A DNA stretch of 64,000 nucleotides from an uncultured Muribaculaceae bacterium (GCA_965231035.1 OZ246409.1:338075-402074); one strand, 5' to 3'. Counted from the stretch's first letter, positions 2,671 through 43,192 are shown. Numbers and translations are program-made. The notes: generated by a model from the letters alone, not told the origin.

Positions 2671-3669
2671 TTATTCTACTATATTATCAATCATACGGTT
2701 CATATTTTGTCGGAAATCTTCCCGATTAGAAGCCCAAATCAACTGCTTACTCATAAATTTATAAACATCATCCATTGTCAAATTTTGGATTTTTGCATTA
2801 CCAGCAACCCGTTTCCAAGCCATTCTGGGATCGGTTAAATGATATCCGCCGCGACCCGGGAAAACCCATTTCCCATTCTGAGGCAGGTCCTGTAAAACAA
2901 CAACCGCAGCATCTGACAAAGGGTGATTTTTCCATGTGTAATGGTTAAAATCTAAATCACGCCACTGCATAGAAAACACCTTGGACTTTGGTATAAACCC
3001 GTAAATAAGCATTAAAAAGGCAGATCTTAGCACCTGAGACTTTTCTTTATTTATTGCAATTAAAAGTCTATCAAATCCGGCCCTGGTCAGTGGACGAACA
3101 CGACGTTGTTCTTTTACTTTTTCTATATTTGAAACCGGATTTTCAGAAAGATACCCACTTTCTATTGCAAAGTTGAATATGCTGTGCACCAGTTCTTGCA
3201 TACGGTTTCTGACAACATTACCATCAATTTTATCCAACAATTCTTTGACTGTATCAGTATTTATTTCTTGGATATTTGATTCAAATATTGGTCCCAAGTG
3301 TCTGACCATTGAACGAACCAATTTTGCCAAAGATGTTTCGGTCCGATGAACTTTCTTAGTTAAATAAATATCTGCTACTCTTCTGAAGCTGACTTTTTTA
3401 TGGCGTAGTTTTGGTTTTACACTGGCAGCTCTTAAAACTTCGGGAACCATAATTCTAGCATCAGCAATTTCAACATCTGGGTATTTTCCGATGATAATTC
3501 TGCGGTCATGACCATTTACACGCTTTCTGACAAAAAAGCTTTTTACCCCGCGATTTGTTATGTACATGCGAAGTCTGGGCTCGGCAGAATCCTGAACCAC
3601 GTCAAATCCATTACTGGGGATGGGCAAATTGTCCAAAATATAAGGATTAAACAGAAACTGATGCGCCAT
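2671..3669 (-). CDS. phage-integrase-family protein (P4-type N-terminal arm-binding/DUF4102-like domain); catalytic region appears degenerate or truncated
   Basis: N-terminal region (LRMYITNRGVKSFFVRKR...IIIGKYPDVEIADAR) fits P4-like integrases. The C-terminal core lacks the usual R...HxxR...Y residues and ends early at 332 aa. Confidence 0.5.
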   Translation of the reverse strand: MAHQFLFNPYILDNLPIPSNGFDVVQDSAEPRLRMYITNRGVKSFFVRKRVNGHDRRIIIGKYPDVEIADARIMVPEVLRAASVKPKLRHKKVSFRRVADIYLTKKVHRTETSLAKLVRSMVRHLGPIFESNIQEINTDTVKELLDKIDGNVVRNRMQELVHSIFNFAIESGYLSENPVSNIEKVKEQRRVRPLTRAGFDRLLIAINKEKSQVLRSAFLMLIYGFIPKSKVFSMQWRDLDFNHYTWKNHPLSDAAVVVLQDLPQNGKWVFPGRGGYHLTDPRMAWKRVAGNAKIQNLTMDDVYKFMSKQLIWASNREDFRQNMNRMIDNIVE

Positions 3670-3690: not shown

Positions 3691-5478
3691 CTAAACTTTC
3701 AAAGCATTTATAAATGCGGTTTGTGGGATTTCGACATTACCGAATGTCCGCAAACGCTTTTTACCCTCTTTCTGCTTTTCTAACAATTTTCTTTTACGCG
3801 TAATATCACCACCATAACATTTGGCTGTAACATCTTTTCTGAACGCAGCGATTGTTTCACGAGCAATAATTTTTCCACCAATTGCCGCCTGGATTGGAAT
3901 CTTGAATTGATGTCTTGGAATCAAATCTTTTAATTTTTCAACAATTTGGCGACCACGTTTTTCCGAAAAAGAACGATGACATAAGAATGATAGAGGTTCG
4001 ACATTCTCTTCATTAACAAGAATAGATACCTTGACCAAATCAGATTCCTGGTACCCCTGCAAAACGTAATCAAAGCTGGCATAGCCACTGGATAAAGATT
4101 TCACACGATCATAAAAATCAAAAACTATTTCCGCCAATGGCAACTGGTAAACCAAAACCACACGGTTTCCAACATAAGAAATATTTTCCTGAACCCCACG
4201 ACGTTCAGAACACAGTGCCATAATTCCACCCATATATTTATCCGGCATCATTATTGTTGCACGAACCCAAGGTTCTTCAATTGATTCAATTAATGTTAAA
4301 TCTGGAATATCGGCTGGATTTTCCAAATCCAGAACTTCACCATTACGCAGGTGCAGCTTATAAAGCACGCTGGGAATTGTATTAATCAGATTCAAATCAA
4401 ATTCACGAGATAATCTTTCGTTTATGATTTCCATATGCAGCAGACCCAAAAAGCCGCAACGCAAACCAAACCCCAGCGCACTGGATTTTTCAACTGTGAA
4501 CACAAACGAAGCATCATTCAATGCCAATTTTTCGGCGCCATCACGCAGATTCGGGTAATCATCTGCCTCTACCGGAAAGAAGCTGGAAAACACAACCGGG
4601 ATGCTGGGTTTGAACCCGGCCAACCTTTCAACTGTTGCACGCGCATCTGTAATTGTATCACCGACCTTGCAGTCATGAATTGTCTTCATACCGGTTATGA
4701 TAAATCCAACTTCACCTGTGGCCAGTTCATCCACATTAACCATCTTGGGTGTAAAGTATCCGATTTTATCAACAATATATTCTGCGCCTGTTGCTATAAA
4801 TTTAATCTTTTGACCGCGTTTCAAACTTCCATCAACAACACGAACCAAAACCACAACCCCCAGATACGAATCGTACCAAGAATCAACCAACAACGCCCGC
4901 GTTGGTGAATCGGCATTTCCCTTTGGGGCTGGTAATTTTTTTACAATTTCTTCTAATAATTCAGGAACGCCCTGACCTGTTTTTCCAGAAACAGACAAAG
5001 CATCCTTTGCATCCAATCCAATAACATCGGCCATTTGATCCTTGGCGGCCTGAACATCACTGGAAGGTAAATCAATTTTATTTATAACCGGCAACATTTC
5101 CAAATTGTTATCCAAAGCCAGATAAGCATTTGCCAATGTTTGTGCCTGGACGCCTTGGGTTGCATCAACCAAAATCAAAGCACCTTCGCATGCGGCCAAA
5201 CTGCGTGAAACCTCGTAAGTAAAATCCACATGACCAGGGGTATCCATCAAGTTTAACTGATAAACTTCACCATTTTTCGCAGTATAATTCAAACGAACAG
5301 TCTGAGCCTTGATTGTAATTCCTCGTTCGCGTTCGATATCCATACTGTCCAGAACCTGGGCCTTCATTTCACGGGATTCCAATCCCCCTGTGAATTCAAT
5401 CAATCTGTCCGACAGTGTCGATTTACCATGATCAATGTGAGCGACTATTGCAAAATTTCTGATATTTGATTGTTTCAT
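3691..5478 (-). CDS. lepA: elongation factor 4 (LepA)
   Basis: 595 aa. GTPase motifs [18 protein letters not shown], plus LepA C-terminal domain. Confidence 0.93.
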
Positions 5479-7040: not shown

Positions 7041-7388
7041 ATGAAACCGAGTTTATCTTTCAGAAATAATAATCCTGGAAATTTAAGATTCAGCGAATTT
7101 ACAATCAGGCATGGTGCAACACACGAATCGAATGGGTTTGCGGTTTTTCCAAATTACGAAGTTGGATTTGCAGCGTTATGTGCATTGTTCAAAACAAAAA
7201 GTTATCGTGAACTTGGTCTTTATTATGCAGTACATCGCTATGCCCCGGCATCTGAAAATAACACTGAAAATTATATAAAGTTTATTGAAAACCAAACAGG
7301 TTTTTCGCGTGATGAATTTGTAAAAGACCTGGACATTACAAAGCTGGCACAAGCAATTCAAAAATTCGAAGGATGGATACCAAATTAA
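7041..7388 (+). CDS. hypothetical protein with NNPGNLR motif
   Basis: 115 aa; the N-terminal FRNNNPGNLRF motif recalls phage/plasmid-borne small proteins. Family not identified. Confidence 0.4.
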   Translation: MKPSLSFRNNNPGNLRFSEFTIRHGATHESNGFAVFPNYEVGFAALCALFKTKSYRELGLYYAVHRYAPASENNTENYIKFIENQTGFSRDEFVKDLDITKLAQAIQKFEGWIPN

Positions 7389-7394
7389 TTATCG

Positions 7395-7739
7395 TTAAAT
7401 TTTTTCCAACAATTTATCAATTCTGTCAGCGCGTTCCAATGTGTCGTCATAGCTGAACTTTATATCAGGTACATATTTTTGATTCATACGCGCAGCCAAT
7501 TCGAAACGAACCATCTTGGTTATTTCTTCTAAACGTTTCTGGGTCAAAACCCGGTCAGAATTTCTGGTGTAATAAAATAACTTTACAAACCGTAAACCAC
7601 CATGTGATTCTGAACCAACCAATGAAACCATAGATACAATGGAATCTTCGCTGAAATTATCGCGCAGAATTTCTGCGACCAATATTTGAACTTTGCTGGC
7701 TATTTTTTCGCCACGATTAAAATTTGTTTCTTTTTTCAT
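7395..7739 (-). CDS. rbfA: ribosome-binding factor A
   Basis: 114 aa. IVSMVSL...VPDIKFSYDD pattern matches RbfA. Confidence 0.75.
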   Translation of the reverse strand: MKKETNFNRGEKIASKVQILVAEILRDNFSEDSIVSMVSLVGSESHGGLRFVKLFYYTRNSDRVLTQKRLEEITKMVRFELAARMNQKYVPDIKFSYDDTLERADRIDKLLEKI

Positions 7740-7808: not shown

Positions 7809-8381
7809 ATGAAATTTTTAAGCAATCTTATGAAGAAATCTGAACACCCTGCTTTTTTTTGGGTGGTTTTTTTTATGACATTTTGTGAATCTGTGTTTTT
7901 GTTTATTCCACCAGAGGTTTTTATTGCTCCACCAATTTTAGCAAATAAAAAACGTGCAATGCCAACAGTAGTGGCGGCATCATTAGGATCTTTGGTTGGC
8001 GGCGCAGTTTCTTATATGATTGGTTTGTGGTTGTTTGATTCTGTTGGCATGTGGTTGATTAATACTTTTTCCAGCATGGATAATTTTGCAATTGCTCAAC
8101 AAATGTTTATAAAGCACGGAATATTTATTATGTTCTTAGCCGCGTTTACACCTGTTCCATATAAATTGTTGGCAATTTGTGCCGGATTCATTGGGTTTCC
8201 AGCAGTTTTATTTTTAGGTGTTTCTGCAGTATTCAGAACTTTGCGTTTTGCAATCACAGGATTTTTAATCTGGCGTTGGCAAGATAAAGCCCGCGCCATA
8301 GCCAAGAAATATTTTTGGCCGTTGATGATATTTGCAATACTGTTTGCTGTATCTGGTATTGGGATAATATTTCTTATTTAA
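7809..8381 (+). CDS. DedA/YqaA-family membrane protein
   Basis: 190 aa, polytopic, with DedA-like N-terminal motif. Confidence 0.5.
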   Translation: MKFLSNLMKKSEHPAFFWVVFFMTFCESVFLFIPPEVFIAPPILANKKRAMPTVVAASLGSLVGGAVSYMIGLWLFDSVGMWLINTFSSMDNFAIAQQMFIKHGIFIMFLAAFTPVPYKLLAICAGFIGFPAVLFLGVSAVFRTLRFAITGFLIWRWQDKARAIAKKYFWPLMIFAILFAVSGIGIIFLI

Positions 8382-8399: not shown

Positions 8400-8909
8400 T
8401 TATTCAACCCAAATGGTTGCATAAGTTGTTGCTGTTTCAGAGCCTATTGGAATTTTCACATTAGATTTTGTAACATTCAATGTATCTGTTCCGACAGATA
8501 CATCAGAAATAACGTAACCAGTTCCAGACGTTGTAACACTGGCCAAACCAGATTCACCCGCAGGACCTTGAATTCCCTGGGGACCTTGGGGACCAATTTC
8601 GCCTTGGGGACCCTGTGCACCAGTTTCACCTTGGGGACCTTGGATACCTTGAATTCCCTGGGAACCTTGGGGACCAGTTTCACCCTGAGGACCCTGTGCA
8701 CCAGTATCTCCGGTATCACCTTTTGGACCCTGAGGACCAGTTTCACCCTGAGGACCTTGAGGTCCAGGAATCAGAGTTACTCCTTCTACAACCCTATCAA
8801 CATAGGTTTTACTTGCAATATTACCCGAAGCATAGCCAACAGTGGTTACTATAATTATAGCAACAAGAGAAACCGAAAAAATGCAATTTTTTTTCGTCAT
8901 ATCAACCAT
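8400..8909 (-). CDS. collagen-like (G-X-Y) repeat protein with N-terminal membrane anchor
   Basis: [28 protein letters not shown]... runs. N-terminal SKTYVD motif shared with the neighbouring paralogs. Confidence 0.7.
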
Positions 8910-8999
8910 ACTGAGGATAAATTTAAAACACTCTTACACGAAATCATAATATTTTTATTTGTGTGAAAAAAGAGTTTTTTTCACACAAAACAAAAAATA

Positions 9000-9857
9000 T
9001 TATCTTTCTACAACTTCCCAAGTATATGCTGTTCCATCAAAAGTCAGAACACACTTGCTGGTTGGATTGGAACATGCACCCGGTGCAGCTGTCGCCAATG
9101 TACCCAGACTTGCTGTATCAGCTTTTAATCCCAATGCTGTATTAATAGCTGTTGATGTCATAGCATCAGTGATACCATATCCAGACAATGTTGTTGCTTT
9201 ATCAGCTTTTGTTCCCAACGATGTATCAACTTCTGTTTTTGTATAAGTTGTTGCCTGATCAGCTTTTGCTGCTAAGGCTGTATTAACATCAGCTGTATTT
9301 GCTTTTGCTGCTAATGCTGTGTTTACATCGGCTGTATTCGCCTTGGTTGCCAAAGAAGTGTCAACTTCTGTCTTGGTATATGTTGTTGCCTTATCAGCCT
9401 TGGCATCTAATGCAGTATTAACAGTTGCGGTTTGTGCATAACCAGTCAAGTCAGCAGATTGCAATGCTGTATCAGCCTTGCCCAAAGAAGTTTGAACATC
9501 TGTTGCCAACTTTGGTTTCGTTACATTACCATCTACGATATCAGCAGTTCCAACAGTACTTTTTGTTGCCAATGCACCCAAACTTGCTGTATCAGCCTTT
9601 GCACCCAATGCTGTATCAACTTCAGTCTTGGTATATGTTGTGGCTTGATTTGCTTTAGCTGCTAAAGATGTATCAACTTCACTTTTTGTATAAGTTGTTG
9701 CCTGATCAGCTTTTGCTGCTATTGCAGTATTAATTGTTGTTGTTTGCGATGTATTTTGAGCATCAACATAGTTCTTACTGGCGATTTCAGCATTCGCTGC
9801 GCTTGCAAAACCTGCTGCAACTAAGATAGCAAACAGACTAGTGGTTATTTTTTTCAT
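9000..9857 (-). CDS. secreted repeat protein (TKAD/TTYTKTEVDT heptad-like repeats), paralog family
   Basis: Signal peptide. SKNYVDAQN motif. Repeated ...AAKADQATTYTKTEVDTSL... units. Conserved C-terminus. Confidence 0.7.
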   Translation of the reverse strand: MKKITTSLFAILVAAGFASAANAEIASKNYVDAQNTSQTTTINTAIAAKADQATTYTKSEVDTSLAAKANQATTYTKTEVDTALGAKADTASLGALATKSTVGTADIVDGNVTKPKLATDVQTSLGKADTALQSADLTGYAQTATVNTALDAKADKATTYTKTEVDTSLATKANTADVNTALAAKANTADVNTALAAKADQATTYTKTEVDTSLGTKADKATTLSGYGITDAMTSTAINTALGLKADTASLGTLATAAPGACSNPTSKCVLTFDGTAYTWEVVER

Positions 9858-9895
9858 ATTTTTATCTCCTTAATTATATCTTGTATGTTTAAACT

Positions 9896-10798
9896 TTATT
9901 GAACTGCAACATCTTCCCAATAAACCGTTCCTGTTGTTTTATTTATGCTTAACACGCATTGTGCTTGTGCGCCTAAACAGTTTGCAGATGGTTTTGGAAC
10001 AGAATATGTTTCAACAGCATTTACAGTTGTATACTTGGTTGTGCTGCCAGTATCTGTTGCGATGTTGTTTGATTTATTAGCAACATCTTCTTTTCCAGAC
10101 AGGTCTGTATTAATACCTGTTACTACACCACCAACATAGCTTTCAACTGCATGTACAGTCGTATACTTACTTGTGCTGCCTGTATCTGTTGTCATGTTAT
10201 CTGACTTATTTGCAACATCTTCCTTAGTTGCCAACGCTGTGTTAACATCTGTTGTGTTTGCTTTTGTTGCTAATCCAGTATCAACATATGTTGTATCTGC
10301 TTTGGTTGCCAATGCTGTGGTTACATCTGTTGTGTTTGCTTTTGTTGCCAATTGACCATCAACATATGTTGTGTCAGCTTTTGTTGCCAAACCTGTGTTA
10401 ACGTCTGCTGTTTTTGCATAATCTGTCAAATCAGCTGATTGCAATGCTGTATCTGCTTTGCCCAAAGTTGTTTGAACATCCAATGACAATTTTGGTTTAG
10501 TTACACTTGCATCATCAATATCAGTTGTTGTAACTGTACTTTTTGTTGCCAATGCACCCAAACTTGCTGTATCAGCCTTTGCACCCAATGCTGTATCAAC
10601 TTCAGTCTTGGTATAAGTATCCGTTTTATCAGCTTTTAAATTCAATGCCGATGTTGTATTTGTAGAAAGCGTTGCATTTTGAGCATCAACGTATCCTTTA
10701 CTGGTCAACTGAGTATCTCCAGGAGCTGCCTGAGCTGTACCAGCGCCAATCAGAATTACTGACATGACACCAAAAAAGACTATTTTTTTGTTTTTCAT
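9896..10798 (-). CDS. secreted repeat protein, paralog of 9000..9857
   Basis: Signal peptide, SKGYVDAQN, ATKADTTYVDTGLATKANTTDV repeats. An ~85-bp DNA tract is identical to the 9000..9857 gene. Confidence 0.7.
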   Translation of the reverse strand: MKNKKIVFFGVMSVILIGAGTAQAAPGDTQLTSKGYVDAQNATLSTNTTSALNLKADKTDTYTKTEVDTALGAKADTASLGALATKSTVTTTDIDDASVTKPKLSLDVQTTLGKADTALQSADLTDYAKTADVNTGLATKADTTYVDGQLATKANTTDVTTALATKADTTYVDTGLATKANTTDVNTALATKEDVANKSDNMTTDTGSTSKYTTVHAVESYVGGVVTGINTDLSGKEDVANKSNNIATDTGSTTKYTTVNAVETYSVPKPSANCLGAQAQCVLSINKTTGTVYWEDVAVQ

Positions 10799-10949
10799 TT
10801 TTTTCTCCGTTTTTGTTTTTTATCCCTTTTTTCTTTTTTAAGAAAACAGGTATATTTTCTTGTGATATTCAAAAATTTTTCAACTTATGCTTATCACTAC
10901 TCCCTTATTTGATTCAGTTGACTAAACAACCAAACCTTATCTACACTTT

Positions 10950-12398
10950 TTAATAAGCTACTTTAAACCAATCTGTTTGTCCGTTATTTACAACCATAAC
11001 ATAGTCAGAACCATCCGCAGGTGCGCCTGTGGTACTTGGAACATCCCCTGGTTGCAAAGCTGTATCCGCCTTGCCCAAAGAAGATTGAACATCTGTTGCC
11101 AACTTTGGTTTTGTAACATTGGCATCATCGATATCATTTGTTGCAACAGTATTCTTCGCAGCCAAAGCACCCAAGCTGGCTGTATCTGCTTTTGTCGACA
11201 AAGAAGTATTTACTTCTGTTTTTGTTGCATAGTTGGACATATCGGCCGATTGCAATGCTGTATCTGCTTTATCCAGAGAAGATTGGACATCCGTCGATAA
11301 TTTTGGTTTAGTAACATTCGCGTCATCAATATCTGTTGTTGCTACTGTATTCTTTGCAGCCAAAGCACCTAAACTCGCTGTGTCTGCCTTGGTTGATAAA
11401 TCTGTTTTTGTAGCATAATTAACTAAATCCGCTGGTTGAACTGCTGTATCTGCTTTGGCCCCTTGGACAGATGTTGCATAATTAGCAGCAGCAGCATTTA
11501 TCGCAGCAATAATTGCTGAATTCATTTCCAGTGTTGTTGAATATCCTGACAAATCAGCACCAGATCCAGGTTCACCCTGTGGACCTTGGGCACCAGTATC
11601 ACCTTTGTCACCCTTTTCGCCTTGAGGACCCTGTAATCCTTGTTCACCCTGTGGGCCTTGTAATCCCTGCTCTCCTTGGAGACCTTGTAAACCTTGTTCA
11701 CCTTGAAGTCCCTGGGCACCATCAGCACCTTTTAAATCTTGCAGGGATACCAAGTTAGTCCATGTACTGGATGCATCGTCATACTTCCATTGAATATGCG
11801 TTCCGTCTGATTGTAATAATATTTTTTCGCCGTTTACATTAACTGCGGATATAACACCATTTGCAATTTCAATCCCCGCACCAGCTGTTAAAATATCTTG
11901 TTTTGAATCTAATAATGTATCAGTTTCTGTTTTTGAATACTGATTATCATTAGCATCTTTTATATTATCTACTCTGGTATCTAAAACATCTATTTGATTT
12001 TGTAAATCTGTGTTATTACCTGTGCTGCCATTTGATGTGCTATAGCTGGGATTTTGAGATCTGATAGAGCTGCCACCACCAACATTTTTTCCACCACTTA
12101 AATATTTTCCAACAGAAAGTCTTGAAGAATAATAGCCAGAAGAATTTCTGGCAACACTTGTATCATTGGAATCAGAAGAAGTACTTGTTGAAGAACTGTC
12201 TGTATCAGTATTTGAATTTACTCTGATAGACGCAGCACGCAAAGAACCCGTACGTGCAGCTGTTGCATCGGAAGCACTGTTATATGTAGTCGCACCACCA
12301 AAAGATCTTATGGACGGAGCAGCATGTACACCACTAAAAGTGGTTGTACAAAAAACGCAAACTATTGATAATAATGATATCTTTACGTTATGTCTCAT
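10950..12398 (-). CDS. secreted chimeric collagen-like plus TKAD-repeat protein, paralog family
   Basis: Signal peptide. GLQGEQGLQGPQGEKGDKGDTG collagen run plus KPKL(A/S)TDVQSSLGKADTALQ repeats. Confidence 0.7.
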   Translation of the reverse strand: MRHNVKISLLSIVCVFCTTTFSGVHAAPSIRSFGGATTYNSASDATAARTGSLRAASIRVNSNTDTDSSSTSTSSDSNDTSVARNSSGYYSSRLSVGKYLSGGKNVGGGSSIRSQNPSYSTSNGSTGNNTDLQNQIDVLDTRVDNIKDANDNQYSKTETDTLLDSKQDILTAGAGIEIANGVISAVNVNGEKILLQSDGTHIQWKYDDASSTWTNLVSLQDLKGADGAQGLQGEQGLQGLQGEQGLQGPQGEQGLQGPQGEKGDKGDTGAQGPQGEPGSGADLSGYSTTLEMNSAIIAAINAAAANYATSVQGAKADTAVQPADLVNYATKTDLSTKADTASLGALAAKNTVATTDIDDANVTKPKLSTDVQSSLDKADTALQSADMSNYATKTEVNTSLSTKADTASLGALAAKNTVATNDIDDANVTKPKLATDVQSSLGKADTALQPGDVPSTTGAPADGSDYVMVVNNGQTDWFKVAY

Positions 12399-12457: not shown

Positions 12458-13168
12458 TTAAAATTCGTATCTTAACCCCAAAGAAAACTGATTATCTAAA
12501 ACCAAACCAATATCTGATTTAAAATAATACTTCTCATAAACATCATCTTTATCAGGATCTGCTTCAAAATATCTGGTATGACTAGTACCGTAAAAACCAG
12601 CAATTCTATAACGCAAATCCAAAATAAATCTGTAATCTAATCTGTGTGAAAGTCCAAAAATCAAGCCACCCATTGGTGATAAAGATGTTTTCTCACGATT
12701 ACCTGGCAGAAAAGCATCCCAATTCCAAACTGTTTTTGGAAATGCCAATCCAGCCGAAGCACCAAGATACAAACCATTTCTGAAATCATACAAAGCACTT
12801 GATAAAACATACGGTGTTGAAAAATTAAATTCGATGCCTTGATCTTGATCTGTGAACGTTCCTGTGTAACCTGCTTCAACTTCACCACGCCAAAAATAAC
12901 TAAAGGATTTACCAATTGTAAAACTGCCACCAAAAGATGGTGAAAAAGAATATTTATCACAAGAGTATTCTTTTTGTGCATCTTTTGTATCATTCGAATT
13001 ATAATTATTTGTCCAACTAAGCATATTCATTTCGGCACGAAAACCCATGTACCATCCGGTTTTTTCTTCGTAAACCCTACGATTATCACCAATTAAATAA
13101 TCTTGAACTGCATCGGCCTGCGAAACAGTAAAAAAACACAATAAAAAAGCGTATAACAATCTCTTCAT
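12458..13168 (-). CDS. outer-membrane beta-barrel protein (OmpA-like barrel/opacity family)
   Basis: Signal peptide, alternating amphipathic strands, C-terminal ...LGLRYEF. Confidence 0.55.
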   Translation of the reverse strand: MKRLLYAFLLCFFTVSQADAVQDYLIGDNRRVYEEKTGWYMGFRAEMNMLSWTNNYNSNDTKDAQKEYSCDKYSFSPSFGGSFTIGKSFSYFWRGEVEAGYTGTFTDQDQGIEFNFSTPYVLSSALYDFRNGLYLGASAGLAFPKTVWNWDAFLPGNREKTSLSPMGGLIFGLSHRLDYRFILDLRYRIAGFYGTSHTRYFEADPDKDDVYEKYYFKSDIGLVLDNQFSLGLRYEF

Positions 13169-13313
13169 AACATTTTGATGTATATACATCATATCACAAA
13201 ACAAAGTACCATCAAAACGCTAAATCCCTAAAATGTTATAACTTGTTAATTTATGACTAAATTTAAGAGCTTGATACTTGACCATAATAAGTTTTTTTAC
13301 TAATATCCATCCC

Positions 13314-14102
13314 ATGGATAATGATACCGCAATATCTTTTGCAAATGTTGGTGCACATTATGATAATGGACGTGAAGTTCTGTCAGATGTTTCTTTTAAT
13401 ATCAGTAAAGGTTCCTTTTATTTTCTTTCTGGGGCATCGGGTGCCGGTAAAACAACTTTATTAAAATTAATCTATCAGCTTCACCGGCAAAGTCGCGGTA
13501 ATATAAAATTATTTGGCAAAACTACAAATGGCTTGTCCAGGGATGACATAACGGATTTGCGTAAAAGAATGGCCATTGTTTTCCAAGAATATTCACTTCT
13601 TTCACATTTATCTGTTTTTGATAATGTTGCTATGCCTTTGCGTGTTCGCGGAATATCTGAAAACAAAATCAAGAAATTGGTTGGTAAAACTTTGGAATGG
13701 GTTGGTCTTGGCAGATACGCTGATTCAAATCCCAAAGAATTAAGTGGGGGTCAACAACAACGCGTTTCTGTTGCGCGTGCAATTATTGTTCAACCTGAAA
13801 TTTTGCTTGCTGACGAACCAACAGGAAATTTGGATGATGAAAATGCATCCAGACTGATGGAATTATTTATTCAAATGAATAAAAATTTCGGAACGACAAT
13901 TATTCTGGCAACACACAGTAGAAAATTGATGGACTCTTATAAATTTCCAACAATAATGGTTGAAAACCACCGTGTAAGTTTTACGGGTAATGATAAAGAA
14001 TCAGAAAATTCTGACAAGAAGGTGTGGAAAGGTCCAAAACCACAAAATTATTTTTCCGAACTGTCCAAACAGTTTGATAACATTGTGAATCCAAAATTAT
14101 GA
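13314..14102 (+). CDS. ftsE: cell-division ABC transporter ATP-binding protein FtsE (with C-terminal extension)
   Basis: Walker A GASGAGKTT and signature LSGGQQQRVSVARA. Directly followed by ftsX. Confidence 0.8.
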   Translation: MDNDTAISFANVGAHYDNGREVLSDVSFNISKGSFYFLSGASGAGKTTLLKLIYQLHRQSRGNIKLFGKTTNGLSRDDITDLRKRMAIVFQEYSLLSHLSVFDNVAMPLRVRGISENKIKKLVGKTLEWVGLGRYADSNPKELSGGQQQRVSVARAIIVQPEILLADEPTGNLDDENASRLMELFIQMNKNFGTTIILATHSRKLMDSYKFPTIMVENHRVSFTGNDKESENSDKKVWKGPKPQNYFSELSKQFDNIVNPKL

Positions 14103-14962
14103 AAATGATAAAGAAGCCACTTGTATTTTCTTTGATACGCGAACAGTCAATATTTATGACCGCGATTATGTCATTGTTAACTTTTATGTCGGTTTTGATT
14201 TTAGGGATTGCTTTATCAATCGGTATTGGTGTTGCACGTTGGAATTCCCAATGGGATTTATTTGCAACTGTCCAAGTTATGTCAGATGAAAATCTTCCTG
14301 CAACACAAAATGTTATTCGTGAAAATGTTTCAAAAATTGCATCTATAAAAGAAATATCCAAAGAAGATATGGAACAAATGCTTCGTCCATGGATGTCCGG
14401 CGGCAGCTCTGAACTTGGAAACTATCTTCCAAAAATGTATGAAATAAAATTCAAAGACAAATCTTATATCACCCCATTTGGCGAAAAAGTTTCTGGTTCA
14501 GCACGTTTCTTGACCCACAGCACAGCACTCAGCAATTCAATCAACGCAGGATGGCGAATGATTGGAATTTCTGGACTTGTTCTGCTTTTGACACTTGGGG
14601 CAATTGCAATTTGTATTTCTTATATTGCGAAAAATACCGCCCTGCTTCACAGACGTGAATTGGAAATATTAAACCAGATTGGCGCACGTGACTCTTTTGT
14701 GGCGAAACAAATGCAAATAATTGTTGGAAAAATTTCTGGTCTGGCTGGATTACTTGGTTTTGCAGCAGCGTTACCGGTTTTGGAATTGATTTTATCAACT
14801 GCAAAAAGTGCCCGTGTTGGATTGATGGCGATGATGGGATTAAATGGTATCAGTTGGATGCTGTTGATTATGATGCCAATCGCAATCGTGATATTTTCAA
14901 TTTACATAACTAAAAAAACAACCCTTAAAATTCTTAATAAAGCAAACGATGAAATTTTTTAA
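14099..14962 (+). CDS. ftsX: cell-division permease-like protein FtsX
   Basis: 287 aa with four TM segments and a large periplasmic loop; overlaps the ftsE stop. Confidence 0.7.
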   Translation: MKMIKKPLVFSLIREQSIFMTAIMSLLTFMSVLILGIALSIGIGVARWNSQWDLFATVQVMSDENLPATQNVIRENVSKIASIKEISKEDMEQMLRPWMSGGSSELGNYLPKMYEIKFKDKSYITPFGEKVSGSARFLTHSTALSNSINAGWRMIGISGLVLLLTLGAIAICISYIAKNTALLHRRELEILNQIGARDSFVAKQMQIIVGKISGLAGLLGFAAALPVLELILSTAKSARVGLMAMMGLNGISWMLLIMMPIAIVIFSIYITKKTTLKILNKANDEIF

Positions 14963-37428: not shown

Positions 37429-38448
37429 CTATATTTTTACGTACCCACCATCTTGTTTTCTTATCAAACCTTGTAATTCCAAGATTACTAATTCAGTTTT
37501 AATTTCCGAAATGTTTTTTTTGACAAGTTCTGCCAATACAGATTCCGACACTGGAACAATTCCTAATTTATCCAAAAGGTTATTTTCGACCTCTTTTTTA
37601 TCTAAATTTTTTTTGGCTTTTTTATCATCTGAATATTCAAAAAAATCTTTTTCACCAGTACATAATTTTGCAAAACCTTTTTGAATCAACTCATTTGGTC
37701 CAGCAGACCGAGAGTCTGAAGGATGCGAAGGTATTGCAAACAGCTGTTTTCCGTACTCCAAAGCGAATCGTGCGGTTGTCATACTGCCCGATTTAAGATC
37801 AGCTTCGCCTAATATTAACTTATCACAAAGCCCTGCAATCCAACGATTTCTTTGAACAAAGTTACTTGCTGTTGGTTGTATTCCAACTGGCATTTCACTT
37901 ATTACCGCACCATGTTCTATTATTTCGTAATACAACGATTCGTTTTCCAATGGCCATATATAATCAACACCACCTGCCAATACTGCAATCGTTTCCGAAT
38001 CGCCGTTTACACGCAAAGCACCCATATGTGCTGCTGTGTCAGTTCCAATGGCCATACCAGATACAACTGCATAATTATTTTTTGCAAAAGATTCTGCCAG
38101 GTCAGACATAAATTTTATACCTGCACCTGTTGCATGACGTGTTCCAACCATTGACACCAATTGTTTTTTGAAAACAGAAACATTTCCACGAACACTTATA
38201 ACTGGGGGATGATTTTTTATTTCAAATAAGCTTTTCGGATAATCAGAATCTTCATCAGATAAATATTTTATTCCTAATTTTTCCGAAGTTTCAATTTCTC
38301 TTTTTACAGAGTCTTTTAATTTTTCATCCCAAGATAAAGATTCAAAAACGGTTTTTACACTTCCAAATTTATGGATTAGTTCATTATACTTTGCTGGTCC
38401 AATACCAGGGGTTCTTAATATTAATAATTTCTTAAATATTTCTTCCAT
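37429..38448 (-). CDS. dprA: DNA processing protein DprA/Smf
   Basis: Rossmann-like core (VVSGMAIGTDTAAH) and C-terminal winged helix. Confidence 0.8.
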   Translation of the reverse strand: MEEIFKKLLILRTPGIGPAKYNELIHKFGSVKTVFESLSWDEKLKDSVKREIETSEKLGIKYLSDEDSDYPKSLFEIKNHPPVISVRGNVSVFKKQLVSMVGTRHATGAGIKFMSDLAESFAKNNYAVVSGMAIGTDTAAHMGALRVNGDSETIAVLAGGVDYIWPLENESLYYEIIEHGAVISEMPVGIQPTASNFVQRNRWIAGLCDKLILGEADLKSGSMTTARFALEYGKQLFAIPSHPSDSRSAGPNELIQKGFAKLCTGEKDFFEYSDDKKAKKNLDKKEVENNLLDKLGIVPVSESVLAELVKKNISEIKTELVILELQGLIRKQDGGYVKI

Positions 38449-40496: not shown

Positions 40497-42137
40497 TTAA
40501 TTCAATGGTGCACCCCAATTTTGTTGAATTTTGTGTTCAACATCCATCGGGCTTACCAGAACTTGTGGTGTCAAGATAACAACCAAAACATCGCGTTGAC
40601 TTTCTGTTTCACGAGAACCCGACAACGCCATAAAGTTTGGATCTCCGATACCATATCTGGTGTCATTATTGGTCTGCTTTTCAAATCCGCTTAATACCAA
40701 CATCTGACCAGATTCCATTATAACTTCCTGCATAAAGCTGCGTTCTTCAACTTCTGGCAATTGCAAAGTTACTTCGCCGATTGTCTGGGTTGACATCTTG
40801 ATTAATTCACGAACAGACATTTTGAACAACAATAAGATTTTTCCGTTTTCCAAAACATTTGGTAACAGCTGCATTGAAAATCCTGTTTCCAAATCATCTT
40901 GATCAACAGTGCTGGATTCAACAGTCGTAAAGTTACGTGATTCAAAACGTTTAATATATCCAGTTGTCTTTGTATTGCTTACTGGGGCAACACGGTTGCT
41001 GCGGGTTGTCACACCAACGTTTGTGACCAATGATACTTTACCCTGTTTTGCCAAAGCGCTTATCAAAGCATTACTTCCTGCGGCACCAGCCAATGCACCA
41101 TTTTTAATTTGGTCAGCTGTGTATGCACCAGCAGTTTCTGTTCCACTAACATCATGCGTAGCACCTGTCAAAGAAGAAACCGTATTAGACAAAACCGCAA
41201 TATTCATAGAACTTGCTTCTGTTGTAGATAAATTATTCTTTGGGTTCGCAACAATGTTTAATCCCGAAGCAGAATTTATAGCAGCAGCCAGATTCAACCC
41301 AAATGCAGAATTATTTGCAATTGAAACTTGCAGAACTTTGACATCAATTGTTACCAACTGAGACAAACGTTTATTCTGTTTAGCTATATAGTCACCAACT
41401 CTGTTTTGAACCGATGGAGGTGCAGTAACAGTAATAGTTCCTAAACTTTTTGCTACTGTAAAGTTAGCATTGTCAGTTTTTCCAACAATAGAAGATATTG
41501 TTTTTTCTACTTCATCCCATTCTTTCATATTTGATTGCAACTCGACCTGATTACCATCATCTGTTTTAATAGAAGATTGATAAGAAACATCTGTTCCCAA
41601 AGCATATAATGTAAATGTTTTTGTTTCTGTTTCATAGAAAACAATCGAATCGTTTTCATAATACCAGAGCAAATCTAAATCTGTTGCAACCTGAGATAAC
41701 AAGCCAGAAAGCTTTCCTGTATAAGCAATATTAACTGTCTTTTTTAATTTGTCAGGATTAATTTGACTATCTATTTTTACAGGTATCCCTGTTACAGAAT
41801 TAATATTGTTTGCCAATACCTGTAAAGATACAGGTTCATTCATCATTATTGTTACACCAGTATCTGTTTCAAATTTCGAAGGCAAATTATTTCTGTGTTC
41901 CAAAACATTTGATTTATCACCCAACCATACACCTTCGGACATTGAAACGGTGTCACCACTGTCAACCTTGGCGCGTGGATTTTTTGCCATTTCAAATGCG
42001 TCATAAGCATTTACAAAATTCTGATCAACTTCTGCAGCGACTTGTTTTGATTCTTTTGCAGCACATCCCAACAACAAAGGTGCCAGAAAAAACACAAAAA
42101 GAAAAACCCGCCCAAAAGTCATAGATGTTTTTTTCAT
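40497..42137 (-). CDS. lipoprotein secretin (TcpC/BfpB/PilN-like type IVb pilus or related secretin)
   Basis: Lipobox LLLGC. C-terminal secretin domain ending ...VLVVILTPQVL. Confidence 0.65.
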   Translation of the reverse strand: MKKTSMTFGRVFLFVFFLAPLLLGCAAKESKQVAAEVDQNFVNAYDAFEMAKNPRAKVDSGDTVSMSEGVWLGDKSNVLEHRNNLPSKFETDTGVTIMMNEPVSLQVLANNINSVTGIPVKIDSQINPDKLKKTVNIAYTGKLSGLLSQVATDLDLLWYYENDSIVFYETETKTFTLYALGTDVSYQSSIKTDDGNQVELQSNMKEWDEVEKTISSIVGKTDNANFTVAKSLGTITVTAPPSVQNRVGDYIAKQNKRLSQLVTIDVKVLQVSIANNSAFGLNLAAAINSASGLNIVANPKNNLSTTEASSMNIAVLSNTVSSLTGATHDVSGTETAGAYTADQIKNGALAGAAGSNALISALAKQGKVSLVTNVGVTTRSNRVAPVSNTKTTGYIKRFESRNFTTVESSTVDQDDLETGFSMQLLPNVLENGKILLLFKMSVRELIKMSTQTIGEVTLQLPEVEERSFMQEVIMESGQMLVLSGFEKQTNNDTRYGIGDPNFMALSGSRETESQRDVLVVILTPQVLVSPMDVEHKIQQNWGAPLN

Positions 42138-42173: not shown

Positions 42174-43055
42174 TTATTCTTCTATTGTTGAAACTACCAG
42201 CACACGATTTCCCTTATAGAATTTTGCATAAGGAATTGGATTTGCACGGCTGAAATTACGAACCAATGCGGATGCTACATCAACAAAACGACCTTTGAAA
42301 ACTGCACTTGCTTCGACTGGATATTCCCTAGATGTTGCCCAAACAAAATCCCAACCTTCTTTGTTGCACCAATCTTGTAAAACATCATGCAAAGTTTGGC
42401 CACTGGCAACAACCCAACTACGAACCTGGTCATGAACACCTTTTGGTGCTTCGGCATCGGCCGATTGATCAACCGCAATTTCATCTGTGTTAGATGCTTT
42501 ACTTTCTTCTGTTTTATCAACAGAACCAGAAGCCAGAGTTAAATTATTCTTGCCACATTTTTTATGTGCATTACGTGACATTGCTAAAACTGCACCACCA
42601 TCATCTTCCAGCATTTCACGATGCATCAAAGGCATATCTGCCTGGGTATTGCATTCATCGTCAAAACCTGCTGGAACTTGGGATCCGTGCAACATATTCG
42701 CACCGCCAGACCAGCTGGATGAATCACCACCACGACCACCCATCATAATATTATTTTCAACAACTAAGTCTGAACCAATCTTGGAAACAATTTTAATATT
42801 ATCTGACTTTGCACCACCAACACAGTCTGCGGTTTTTGGATCACAAGAAACACTTACGTCTGCATCAGAACCAACAATTGGCCAGGCTGGAACTTCTACA
42901 ATTTGCTTTTGTTCCGATACTTGATTTACCGGTTCAACTGGCTCGCTTGCCTTGTAAGTAACTTCCGAAGTTACAATTTGTGGGATATTTTCTGCTGCAA
43001 AGCAATAAGTAGAAGCGGTTGCAAACAAAGCTGTTATCAAAATCTTACGGAACAT
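42174..43055 (-). CDS. TcpQ/PilL-like secretin-associated periplasmic protein
   Basis: Signal peptide. C-terminal pattern (W..EGWDFVW...FKGRF...A...L...NPIPY.K.Y.GNRVLVV) fits the TcpQ family. Directly upstream of the secretin. Confidence 0.45.
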   Translation of the reverse strand: MFRKILITALFATASTYCFAAENIPQIVTSEVTYKASEPVEPVNQVSEQKQIVEVPAWPIVGSDADVSVSCDPKTADCVGGAKSDNIKIVSKIGSDLVVENNIMMGGRGGDSSSWSGGANMLHGSQVPAGFDDECNTQADMPLMHREMLEDDGGAVLAMSRNAHKKCGKNNLTLASGSVDKTEESKASNTDEIAVDQSADAEAPKGVHDQVRSWVVASGQTLHDVLQDWCNKEGWDFVWATSREYPVEASAVFKGRFVDVASALVRNFSRANPIPYAKFYKGNRVLVVSTIEE

Positions 43056-43192
43056 GAAAGCTTCCTTTCCTAAAAGTTTCATTTTTTTATAGACTTATTA
43101 TAACAAGTTGCTTGAATCGGCGCAAGGATTAAAAAATCGCACGAATCGAGAAAAAGTGTTATAGTAGAACTGTAATTTTTCAGGAGTGACTT

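Follow-up and report, generated by a model that had tools for sequence, protein, structure and literature searches.

The mosaic adhesive trimer (MAT) fibres of Bdellovibrio bacteriovorus are phage-fibre-like proteins that are exported by the Sec pathway and have been shown on the cell surface (PMC10769870). Other described fibres with which comparison is useful are the tail fibres of T5-like phages, T4 fibritin, the collagen-like proteins Lcl of Legionella, Scl1/Scl2 of Streptococcus and BclA of Bacillus, and the trimeric autotransporters of the YadA family. Here we analysed four consecutive minus-strand genes (g1 to g4) in a 64,000-nucleotide stretch of DNA (the window) recorded under an uncultured Muribaculaceae bacterium (GCA_965231035.1 OZ246409.1:338075-402074); the four open reading frames (ORFs) have exactly the coordinates assigned to them in an earlier reading made from this sequence alone (the sequence-only reading). 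Together with a gene for a putative outer-membrane protein (OMP) they form a cluster that is found at the same place in many species. We consider it the most probable explanation, with modest confidence, that the four products are exported trimeric fibres, probably located on the cell surface and used for attachment, and that they make up the fibre component of an envelope cluster of five genes. The known kind to which they would belong is that of bacterial Sec-exported fibres built from phage-fibre and collagen modules, and what is new here is the fixed cluster of four types plus an OMP gene, which is seen in a reduced-genome alphaproteobacterial clade only.

Comparison with described fibre systems

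The proteins resemble the MAT fibres in that they are chromosomally encoded, occur as several paralogs, carry signal peptides, are phage-tail-fibre-like and have one conserved end that is presumed to be cell-bound, a trimeric state being presumed for the proteins of the window as well. They are shorter, with 169-482 amino acids (aa) compared with 600 to >1000 aa for MAT (PMC10769870), and differ in each part of the fibre. The MAT N-domain is β-rich and about 130 aa long, whereas g1 to g3 have a motif of about 8 residues, with the motif and the helix or repeats starting within about 8 residues of the cleavage site, and g4 has an Arg/Ser-rich N-region that is disordered over aa 27-129 in an AlphaFold2 (AF2) model. 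The MAT shafts are β-helical or prism-like, whereas those of the present proteins are helical or collagenous. The MAT tips are large variable adhesive domains or S74 protease domains, whereas here the tip is a tiny conserved hairpin of about 20 residues, and no Pfam domain, S74 domain or large tip was found at the C-terminus of any of the four proteins. The fixed four-type cluster with an OMP gene is a further difference. Because the MAT N-domain and the large tips are absent, the present proteins are not members of the MAT family, a distinction drawn from the description of MAT, without a direct comparison with MAT sequences. MAT is the closest functional precedent, and the cluster would be a second, structurally different case of bacteria building Sec-exported fibres from phage-tail-fibre modules.

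The repeat ATTYTKTEVD(S/T)AL..KAD is nearly identical in the L-shaped or side tail fibres of T5-like phages (pb1/LtfA; Protein Data Bank (PDB) entry 8hqz; ltfAB of phage DT571/2), and the predicted segmented helical shaft, the predicted C-terminal hairpin and the pattern AP.DG..YV....G..W are like those of T4 fibritin. Unlike phage fibres, the present proteins have signal peptides, are encoded in a housekeeping context with no phage neighbours, and have neither a phage attachment domain nor a receptor-binding tip.

With Lcl, Scl1/Scl2 and BclA the proteins share export, uninterrupted Pro/Gln-rich G-X-Y runs and a presumed nature as trimeric surface fibres or adhesins, but unlike in those proteins, the collagen segment is dispensable in some orthologues. 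Against the Lcl model (NF046116, cut-off 500 bits), g1 and g4 scored 60.9 and 55.2 bits, respectively; the alignment covered the collagen region alone and not the Lcl C-terminal domain that the model includes. Scores against the Scl1/Scl2 models (NF038330/NF038329, cut-offs 400/325 bits) were 32-62 bits, and no LPXTG motif was present in the four sequences on direct reading. BclA and C1q-like proteins end in a β-sandwich of about 130 aa, whereas the collagen of g1 is succeeded by only 48 aa and the last module of g4 by about 25 aa; the match to the BclA structure 1wck in the PDB had an E-value of 0.092 and lay over the collagen part. The suggestion in the sequence-only reading that the C-terminal domains are akin to C1q or tail-fibre tips was not upheld, since the 25-48 residues past the last repeat are too short for a C1q/TNF-like domain and AF2 shows a β-hairpin there. 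The YadA family also consists of modular trimeric fibres, as is presumed here, and a module of the present proteins, VTKPKL..DVQ, recurs in a Gallibacterium protein. The YadA-type anchor PF03895 gave no Pfam match at E ≤ 1 in the four proteins, and unlike in the YadA family, the putative barrel is a separate protein, of the OMP_b-brl type to judge from its homologues.

A conserved five-gene cluster

In a pattern scan that took one genome from each species, 64 loci were found, 56 of them non-redundant; they were typed by phmmer comparison of the window proteins with their ORFs and by the class of C-terminus. The order OMP, g4, g3, g2, g1, VTT-domain gene (on the opposite strand) and rbfA was kept in many of the 56 loci, with the cluster seated between ftsE on one side and the VTT-domain gene and rbfA on the other. 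The order is also seen in L001, a related strain with about 94% nucleotide identity and an independent assembly, and in L004, a more distant metagenome-assembled genome (MAG) from Zodletone spring (GCA_016927735.1); both have the same gene set as the window. An OMP homologue was present in 37 of the 56 loci and was the first gene in all 37, a g4-type gene followed it directly in 29 loci, and the run from OMP to g1 was unbroken in 15, although many of the loci end early at contig ends or at the 6-kb flank limit. The retention of the order and of the four types in many of these loci, with the OMP gene upstream, is at variance with a view of the tandem array as a labile amplification.

The source genomes are uncultured Alphaproteobacteria, including Zodletone spring MAGs, termite-gut MAGs labelled 'Rickettsiales bacterium' and many gut bins, and the cluster was also found in MAGs of several Candidatus Enterousia species. 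The g3 product is identical to a database protein (P0012) labelled 'MAG TPA: Alphaproteobacteria bacterium'. A text search of the literature found no paper on these fibre genes.

The OMP of the window ends in ..LRYEF and had no Pfam match at E ≤ 1, but its close homologues (40-51% identity) often carry PF13505 (OMP_b-brl). The homologues form 164 clusters of proteins of 230-260 aa, many with PF13505, which are named outer-membrane beta-barrel, porin-family or opacity-like protein. The start of the gene was placed at 13189 in the JGI gene call and at 13204 in the mechanical ORF. NCBIfam had no family for g2, g3, the OMP or a 115-aa ORF upstream of rbfA.

When g4 residues 27-222 were compared exhaustively by HMMER with 1.84 billion cluster representatives, there were 491 matches, 103 of them below 1e-10; this search was used instead of a word-index search with the g4 N-region, which returned 5 proteins and missed known orthologues. 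About 40 of the 491 matches begin right after the signal peptide and span most or all of the N-region. The others cover only a β module of about 45 residues (GVISA..LLQSDGTHIQWKYDD..W..L), which is repeated in other large proteins. In a representative library, up to 16 copies of this module were seen in larger proteins (up to 2373 aa), and it appears to be an independent repeat domain without a Pfam model.

Signal peptides and conserved ends

Signal peptides were judged by eye and by conservation among orthologues. All four types have, across species, conserved n-h-c signal peptides with AXA-like cleavage sites. This includes g1, which had been described as an exception with a membrane anchor: its orthologues show a canonical n-h-c signal peptide ending in ANA or VFA just ahead of (N/D/E)IASK. 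One example reads MTRKTRIFSVSLIAMLAATANGMVFA↓NIVSKTYVD (arrow, cleavage site), most have the form ..ANA↓(N/D/E)IAS(K/Q)GYVD that typifies g1, and the window copy has TVGYASG↓NIASK.

The motif S-K-x-Y-V-D, proposed to be common to the four N-termini, is present in g1 (NIASKTYVD), g2 (..ANA↓EIASKNYVD) and g3 (TSKGYVD) of the window and is absent from g4. In g1 to g3 it takes the form (I/L)(A/T)SKxYVD and lies at, or at most about 8 residues from, the predicted cleavage site. The mature N-terminus of g4 is distinct, with the pattern A-x-S-[IV]-R-S-[FL]-G-G and the sequence A-P-S-I-R-S-F-G-G.. in the window copy. An assignment of g4 as a lipoprotein (..CVLC..) was considered and rejected, because position −1 is Leu and the lipobox does not fit.

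Across species, the g2 type begins ..ANA↓EIASKGYVD and ends P.P...C..P.NKCVLT(Y/F)N.S.Y.WEVI.RG, and the g3 type begins ..ANA↓ATQIASK.YVD and ends P.P...C......CVLSV....G...W..VT.P. The g4 type begins ..AYG↓ASSVRSLGG.GTY.SAS and ends either AP.DG.DYVLV.N.G...WF.VAY or ..VLGTD..G..VWYEIAM, and the g1 C-terminus is almost invariant in about 25 species. The ends of each type are near-invariant across species, over protein lengths of 119-1064 aa. The earlier claim of a shared short C-terminus therefore holds for the common theme, a short β-hairpin with Trp, but not for the sequence, which is type-specific and distinct in each of the four. Near the C-terminus, two Cys residues are conserved in the g2 and g3 types, as would suit an oxidising compartment.

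Repeat architecture, phage-fibre affinity and predicted structure

Between these ends lie shafts of repeated modules. The repeats TTYTKTEVDT and ATKAD(N)T fill g2, g3 and the C-terminal half of g4, as the sequence-only reading had recognised. However, its description of them as heptads does not agree with the DNA periods of 39, 57, 78, 132 and about 198 nucleotides (nt), which correspond to 13, 19, 26, 44 and 66 residues. The 13-residue units are A(T/D)VNTALAAKANT or TTYVDTGLATKAD, and the 44-residue units are EDVANKS..TDTGST.KYTTV.AVE.Y. A shared module of 62-66 residues, LGALATK..V.T.DI.D..VTKPKL..DVQ..L.KADTALQSADL, is present as a single copy each in g2 and g3 and as two copies in g4. The DNA is as self-repetitive as had been noted: 7 direct-repeat families were found in 4.2 kb, Tandem Repeats Finder reported 16 rows with periods of 27/81 nt (collagen), 39/78, 57 and 132 nt, and all four exact repeats of ≥25 nt in the window lie within this region.

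The collagen-like runs that had been noted score 61 bits (g1) and 37.3 bits (g4) against PF01391, whose gathering cut-off is 27.2, whereas g2 and g3 have no collagen repeats by this test. The uninterrupted runs comprise 25 (g1) and 19 (g4) G-X-Y triplets, in which the residues are mostly Pro, Glu or Leu (X) and Gln (Y). The description of g4 as a chimera was correct, since both repeat types are present. Among the orthologues, ≥5 triplets were found in 22 of 34 g4-type genes; collagen was found in 4 of 26 g1-type genes and in none of the g2 or g3 type. The number of triplets in g4 was 19 in the window, 9 in L004 and 0 in a third genome (P0027), and each type spans several-fold in length between species.

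The g1 product consists of the signal peptide, NIASKTYVD, the 25 triplets and a 48-aa C-terminal domain. In g2, the signal peptide is followed by 19-aa ATTYTKTEVDTSLAAKA(D/N)Q and 13-aa repeats, one shared module, the motif TTLSGYGITDA and the C-terminus C-x6-CVLTFDGTAYTWEVVER. In g3, the signal peptide, TSKGYVD, one shared module and 13/26-aa ATKADTTYVD/ATKANTTDV repeats precede two 44-aa EDVANKS..KYTTV.AVE.Y repeats and the C-terminus C-x6-CVLSINKTTGTVYWEDVAVQ. The g4 product begins with a signal peptide (about aa 1-26), a conserved Arg/Ser-rich N-region (SIRSFGG..ARTGSLRAASIR..SRLSVGKYL..GGSSIR), a helix and a β module at about aa 182-218 (IQWKYDD); these are followed by the 19 triplets, two 66-aa modules and the C-terminal β-hairpin APADGSDYVMVVNNGQTDWFKVAY.

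The g2 repeats matched aa 471-524 of chain d, 'L-shaped tail fiber', of PDB 8hqz (E 5.4e-10), and g2 aa 51-91 is 70.7% identical over 41 aa to the ltfAB fused tail fibre of the T5-like Escherichia phage DT571/2. The g2 repeats also matched phrog_5004 (7.5e-30), and phrog_10305 and several tail-fibre PHROGs were matched as well. A protein search of a phage collection gave 12 records, its sensitivity being lowered by the low-complexity filter. The window proteins themselves had no match at E ≤ 1 to PF22337 (Phage_fiber_rpt) or PF12789 (PTR). Distant homologues carry Mtd_N, Phage_fiber_rpt, PTR or Phage_tail_C domains and have a phage-fibre-like start without a signal peptide. The VTKPKL..DVQ module was also found in phage-like ORFs of Bacteroidota and Firmicutes MAGs and, as VTKPKL..DVQ..L.KAD (81% identity over 27 residues), in a 3811-aa trimeric-autotransporter-like protein of Gallibacterium anatis (locus L050, 31-11466). 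The latter copy indicates that fibre modules circulate between phage fibres and bacterial adhesin stalks.

The AF2 model of g2, made from a 27-sequence alignment, has a mean predicted local distance difference test score (pLDDT) of 62. It shows an N-terminal helix at aa 30-50 (pLDDT about 88), helices of 11-27 residues with breaks at the repeat boundaries, and a C-terminal β-hairpin at aa 268-273/278-283 (pLDDT about 80). In the g4 model (10 sequences; mean pLDDT 45), the Arg/Ser-rich aa 1-129 are disordered and are followed by helices at 128-170, a four-stranded β module at 182-218 (pLDDT about 75), the unmodelled collagen and a C-terminal hairpin at 466-479 (pLDDT about 72). The C-terminus of g4, APADGSDYVMVVNNGQTDWFKVAY, has a foldon-like pattern, in which APADGSDYV aligns with APRDGQAYV of the T4 fibritin foldon (APRDGQAYVRKDGEWVLL). 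In these models, the combination of segmented helices or collagen with a terminal hairpin resembles fibritin in design.

Concerted evolution and purifying selection

An identical tract of about 85 bp (9547-9633 and 10536-10622) had been reported between two of the paralogs. The tract exists, but its exact length is 80 nt (80/80 identical) and the g2 coordinates were about 9 nt off (Table 1). Weaker copies in g4 were also confirmed, at 10987-11249 and 11185-11447 (63-65% identity), along with an exact 27-mer (9492-9518 and 11085-11111). The ungapped homologous block of g2 nt 196-450 and g3 nt 157-411 has 80.4% identity with 50 differences, and a run of 80 identical nt was reached in 0 of 200,000 permutations of the differing sites (P<5e-6). 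Directly downstream of the tract, 14 of 49 codons show synonymous differences; the complete absence of differences over the 26 codons of the tract is therefore not explicable by selection at the protein level.

The shared module of g2 is 83.9% identical to that of g3 in the window and 78.5% in L004, whereas the identity between the window and L004 is 70.4% for g2 and 74.2% for g3. The two module copies of g4, a and b, are 82.3% identical in L004 and 71.5% identical in the window genome. The strict form of the module was found in closer relatives only. The modules of paralogs are more alike within a genome than those of orthologues between genomes, which indicates concerted evolution. In L001 the tract has the same boundaries, with no fixed difference between g2 and g3 and four singletons (1 nt in g3 and 3 nt in g2). 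Since the tract is common to the window and L001, the conversion is at least as old as the split of the strains. Non-reciprocal recombination between the genes is therefore real, as had been proposed, but its recency is not borne out; its effect is to homogenise the modules rather than to vary them.

The fibre proteins of the window and L001 have 482/482 (g4), 285/285 (g2), 166/166 (g1) and 300/301 aa (g3). The sole insertion or deletion in the fibre genes is one codon in g3, outside the repeats, and the order of the modules is the same. The ratios of nonsynonymous to synonymous substitution (dN/dS) between the two strains were 0.07 (g2), 0.10 (g3), 0.13 (g1) and 0.14 (g4), compared with 0.015-0.11 for flanking housekeeping genes. 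It is apparent that the fibre proteins are under purifying selection. Values in or just above the housekeeping range, with the same architecture, give no sign of diversification, and the earlier interpretation of the recombination as a way to vary surface proteins is thereby contradicted. The locus offers a small and clear example of fibre modules that evolve in concert under purifying selection, and it calls for caution in reading identical repeat tracts as a mechanism of variation.

The most divergent gene of the neighbourhood between the strains is not a fibre gene but the OMP gene, which has 87.3% nucleotide identity to L001 5264-5953, a dN/dS of 0.23 and a dN of 0.088. Its 8 gapped codons lie within NNYNSNDTKDAQKEYSCDKYSF. 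This suggests a surface-exposed loop under a pressure unlike that on the fibres.

Proposed function and alternative explanations

In the explanation that we favour, the cluster would encode one envelope system, with the gene for an OMP_b-brl-type barrel followed on the same strand by g4, g3, g2 and g1. Each fibre protein combines a Sec-type signal peptide and a type-specific, strongly conserved mature N-terminus with a shaft of variable length and a short, predicted C-terminal β-hairpin that resembles the foldon motif, the shaft being made of modules shared with phage fibres (13/19-aa TTYTKTEVD/ATKAD, 66-aa VTKPKL..DVQ and 44-aa KYTTV.AVE.Y), of collagen, or of both. The chains would be exported by Sec, and trimerisation would nucleate at the C-terminal hairpin and so set the register of the collagen and helical shaft. 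Nucleation at the C-terminus occurs in fibritin and is required by bacterial and phage collagens. Through their conserved N-termini, the fibres would be anchored on a partner in the envelope that is conserved as well, the barrel encoded in the same cluster being the first candidate, and the resulting surface fibrils may hold partner or host cells. Occasional gene conversion keeps the shared modules alike.

Several points weigh against this explanation. Signal peptides by themselves would place the proteins in the periplasm only, and there is no dedicated outer-membrane export system within the cluster. A β-barrel of about 215 residues is too small for a two-partner or usher-type translocator. 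Both ends of the fibres are conserved and the middle varies, which is the reverse of the usual adhesin pattern with its variable tip. In a compact genome, the OMP gene could adjoin the fibre genes simply because the neighbourhood as a whole is conserved. The AF2 models are of single chains and their overall confidence is low (mean pLDDT 62 and 45), and a Foldseek search of the PDB with both of them gave nothing significant, a blank that means little for models of this kind. Foldon homology was unsupported by hhalign with 20 g4-type C-termini (probability 12%, P 0.0024), and fibritin was not found when the profile of these C-termini was compared with PDB sequences. The placement of the bacterium in the order Rs-D84, to which we now turn, comes from shared synteny and homologues, not from phylogeny.

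On those grounds, the window bacterium probably belongs to, or adjoins, the reduced-genome order Rs-D84. Bacteria of the Rs-D84 or Ca. Enterousia type occur widely in anoxic springs and in the guts of animals and termites. Ca. Enterousia is placed in GTDB order Rs-D84, whose members have reduced genomes, mostly <1 Mbp, and are without amino-acid, nucleotide and lipid biosynthesis, the TCA cycle, respiratory chains and flagella; they have been proposed to be partner-dependent, with 'hypothetical membrane-bound proteins' suggested as mediators of cell interaction (PMC12306168). The cluster accounts for about 0.5% of such a genome, has kept its position in many species and has no products other than envelope and fibre proteins, which makes it a concrete candidate for a contact apparatus. 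A bolder idea, which we put forward tentatively and hold to be possible rather than probable, is that the OMP and the four fibres form one composite, clade-wide attachment organelle of domesticated phage-tail-fibre modules. In such an organelle, g4 would be the barrel-anchored base, g1 to g3 would dock through their shared (I/L)(A/T)SKxYVD cap, and each would have a fixed, non-redundant role; with the whole structure the bacteria would hold on to their partner cells.

The main rival to surface fibres, which we regard as unlikely, is that the proteins are trimeric rods within the periplasm or envelope that tether or space the outer membrane, through the barrel, from the peptidoglycan or inner membrane in the manner of Lpp. 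The Sec signals without outer-membrane export machinery, the adjoining barrel gene, the conservation of both termini as for a rod docked at two ends, and the housekeeping neighbours (ftsEX, rbfA) all agree with such rods. However, a 5- to 8-fold span of length between species (119-1064 aa) does not fit easily into a periplasm of fixed width, a spacer built from four different fibres would be unusual, and all sequence affinities are with extracellular fibres, namely phage tail fibres and the Gallibacterium trimeric-autotransporter stalk.

The view of the sequence-only reading, that of a labile, adhesin-like tandem family whose modules are shuffled by ongoing recombination for surface variation, seems improbable to us. 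It draws on the highly repetitive DNA, on the 80-nt tract shared by two paralogs, and on the differences in repeat number and collagen length among distant species (19, 9 and 0 triplets in g4, and several-fold lengths). Yet the modules of all four genes are arranged alike in a strain of about 94% identity, with dN/dS of 0.07-0.14, and the tract occurs in both strains and is hence not recent. In addition, the clade as a whole retains the gene order and the four types, conversion raises the likeness of the copies, and between the strains it is the OMP gene, not a fibre gene, that has diverged fastest.

It is very improbable that the genes are remnant or domesticated tail-fibre genes of a phage, tailocin or gene transfer agent that function in a phage-like particle. 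Repeats and several motifs typical of phage tail fibres are indeed present, but all four proteins have signal peptides, which were seen on none of the phage-like relatives inspected, no phage structural genes adjoin the cluster, and many species have it at this place between ftsE and rbfA. That the identical tracts are assembly artefacts from collapsed or chimeric repeats, conceivable for a metagenome-assembled genome with short repeats, is scarcely credible, since the genes recur in assemblies made independently from other samples (L001-L003), the tract is bounded identically in L001 and has a few private substitutions there, every reading frame is intact and the orthologues are collinear.

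Genomic neighbourhood and other observations

The coordinates of the features are collected in Table 1. The genes around the cluster are housekeeping genes, and no further phage structural genes adjoin it. A simple scan for terminators and promoters did no better than on shuffled controls and cannot define the operon structure.

Table 1. Features of the fibre cluster and of other parts of the window (coordinates in nt from the first nucleotide of the window).
Feature	Position	Strand	Remarks
g1	8400-8909	minus	169 aa (166 aa if the start is MTKK, position 8900)
g1 collagen-like run	~8541-8765		25 G-X-Y triplets
g2	9000-9857	minus	285 aa
Conversion tract, g2 copy	9556-9635	minus	g2 nt 223-302; encodes YTKTEVDTALGAKADTASLGALATKS
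g3	9896-10798	minus	300 aa
Conversion tract, g3 copy	10536-10615	minus	g3 nt 184-263
g4	10950-12398	minus	482 aa
g4 shared module, two copies	11013-11396	minus	aa 335-396 and 401-462; LGALAAKNTV..DANVTKPKL..DVQ.SL.KADTALQ
g4 collagen-like run	11559-11729	minus	aa 224-280; 19 triplets; PF01391
g4 module of ~45 residues	~11811-11951		aa 150-196
OMP gene	12458-13168	minus	236 aa from MKRLLY; 59 nt upstream of g4
tRNA-Pro	53-129
Integrase-like ORF	2671-3669		Arm-DNA-bind_3 and Phage_int_M
lepA	3691-5478		flanking
115-aa ORF	7041-7388		motif RNNNPGNLR
rbfA	7395-7739		flanking
VTT-domain membrane protein gene	7809-8381		flanking
AT-rich hairpin	8961-8986		g2-g1 spacer
A-rich 18-nt tandem repeat	10790-10840		2.7 copies
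ftsE/ftsX-like	13278-14962		flanking
dnaA	35847-37124
dprA	37429-38448
Secretin gene	40497-42137		PF00263; 546 aa
TcpQ-like gene	42174-43082		PF10671

Two small features were seen in the spacers of the cluster. An A-rich 18-nt tandem repeat (GGAGA(A/T)AAAAA.. on the coding strand) overlaps the g3 start codon and the sequence directly upstream of it, inside the 151-nt spacer between g4 and g3, and may affect the initiation of g3 translation or be prone to slippage. Just past the g2 stop codon, an AT-rich perfect hairpin reads GTGTGAAAAAA-CTC-TTTTTTCACAC on the coding strand; it is not followed by a T-run, and the consensus terminator scan made no call there.

The 115-aa ORF upstream of rbfA had no Pfam or NCBIfam match, and an ORF of the same length is present in L001 (11749-12096). 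The integrase-like ORF lies between tRNA-Pro and lepA, and its catalytic domain was not matched. It was considered as a sign of prophage origin of the fibre genes, about 5 kb away, but this origin was rejected, since lepA intervenes and the same ORF stands beside lepA in L004. There, an ORF of equal length (332 aa) adjoins lepA as it does here, which suggests a conserved gene of the chromosome and not a recent insertion.

The secretin and TcpQ-like genes are 28 kb from the cluster, and dprA is close to the secretin gene. Together, the three could belong to a type IV pilus, a competence system or a type II-like outer-membrane channel. Type II secretion exports Lcl in Legionella. By analogy, a secretin channel could in principle export folded fibres, though nothing ties the secretin genes to the fibre cluster. 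The window also encodes dnaA and has its minimum of cumulative GC skew at about 42-44 kb, and may include the region of the replication origin.

In L004, a gene for a 528-aa methyltransferase/glycosyltransferase-2 protein (9521-11107) is situated between g1 and the VTT-domain gene and is absent from the window and L001. Its product could be a fibre-modifying enzyme.

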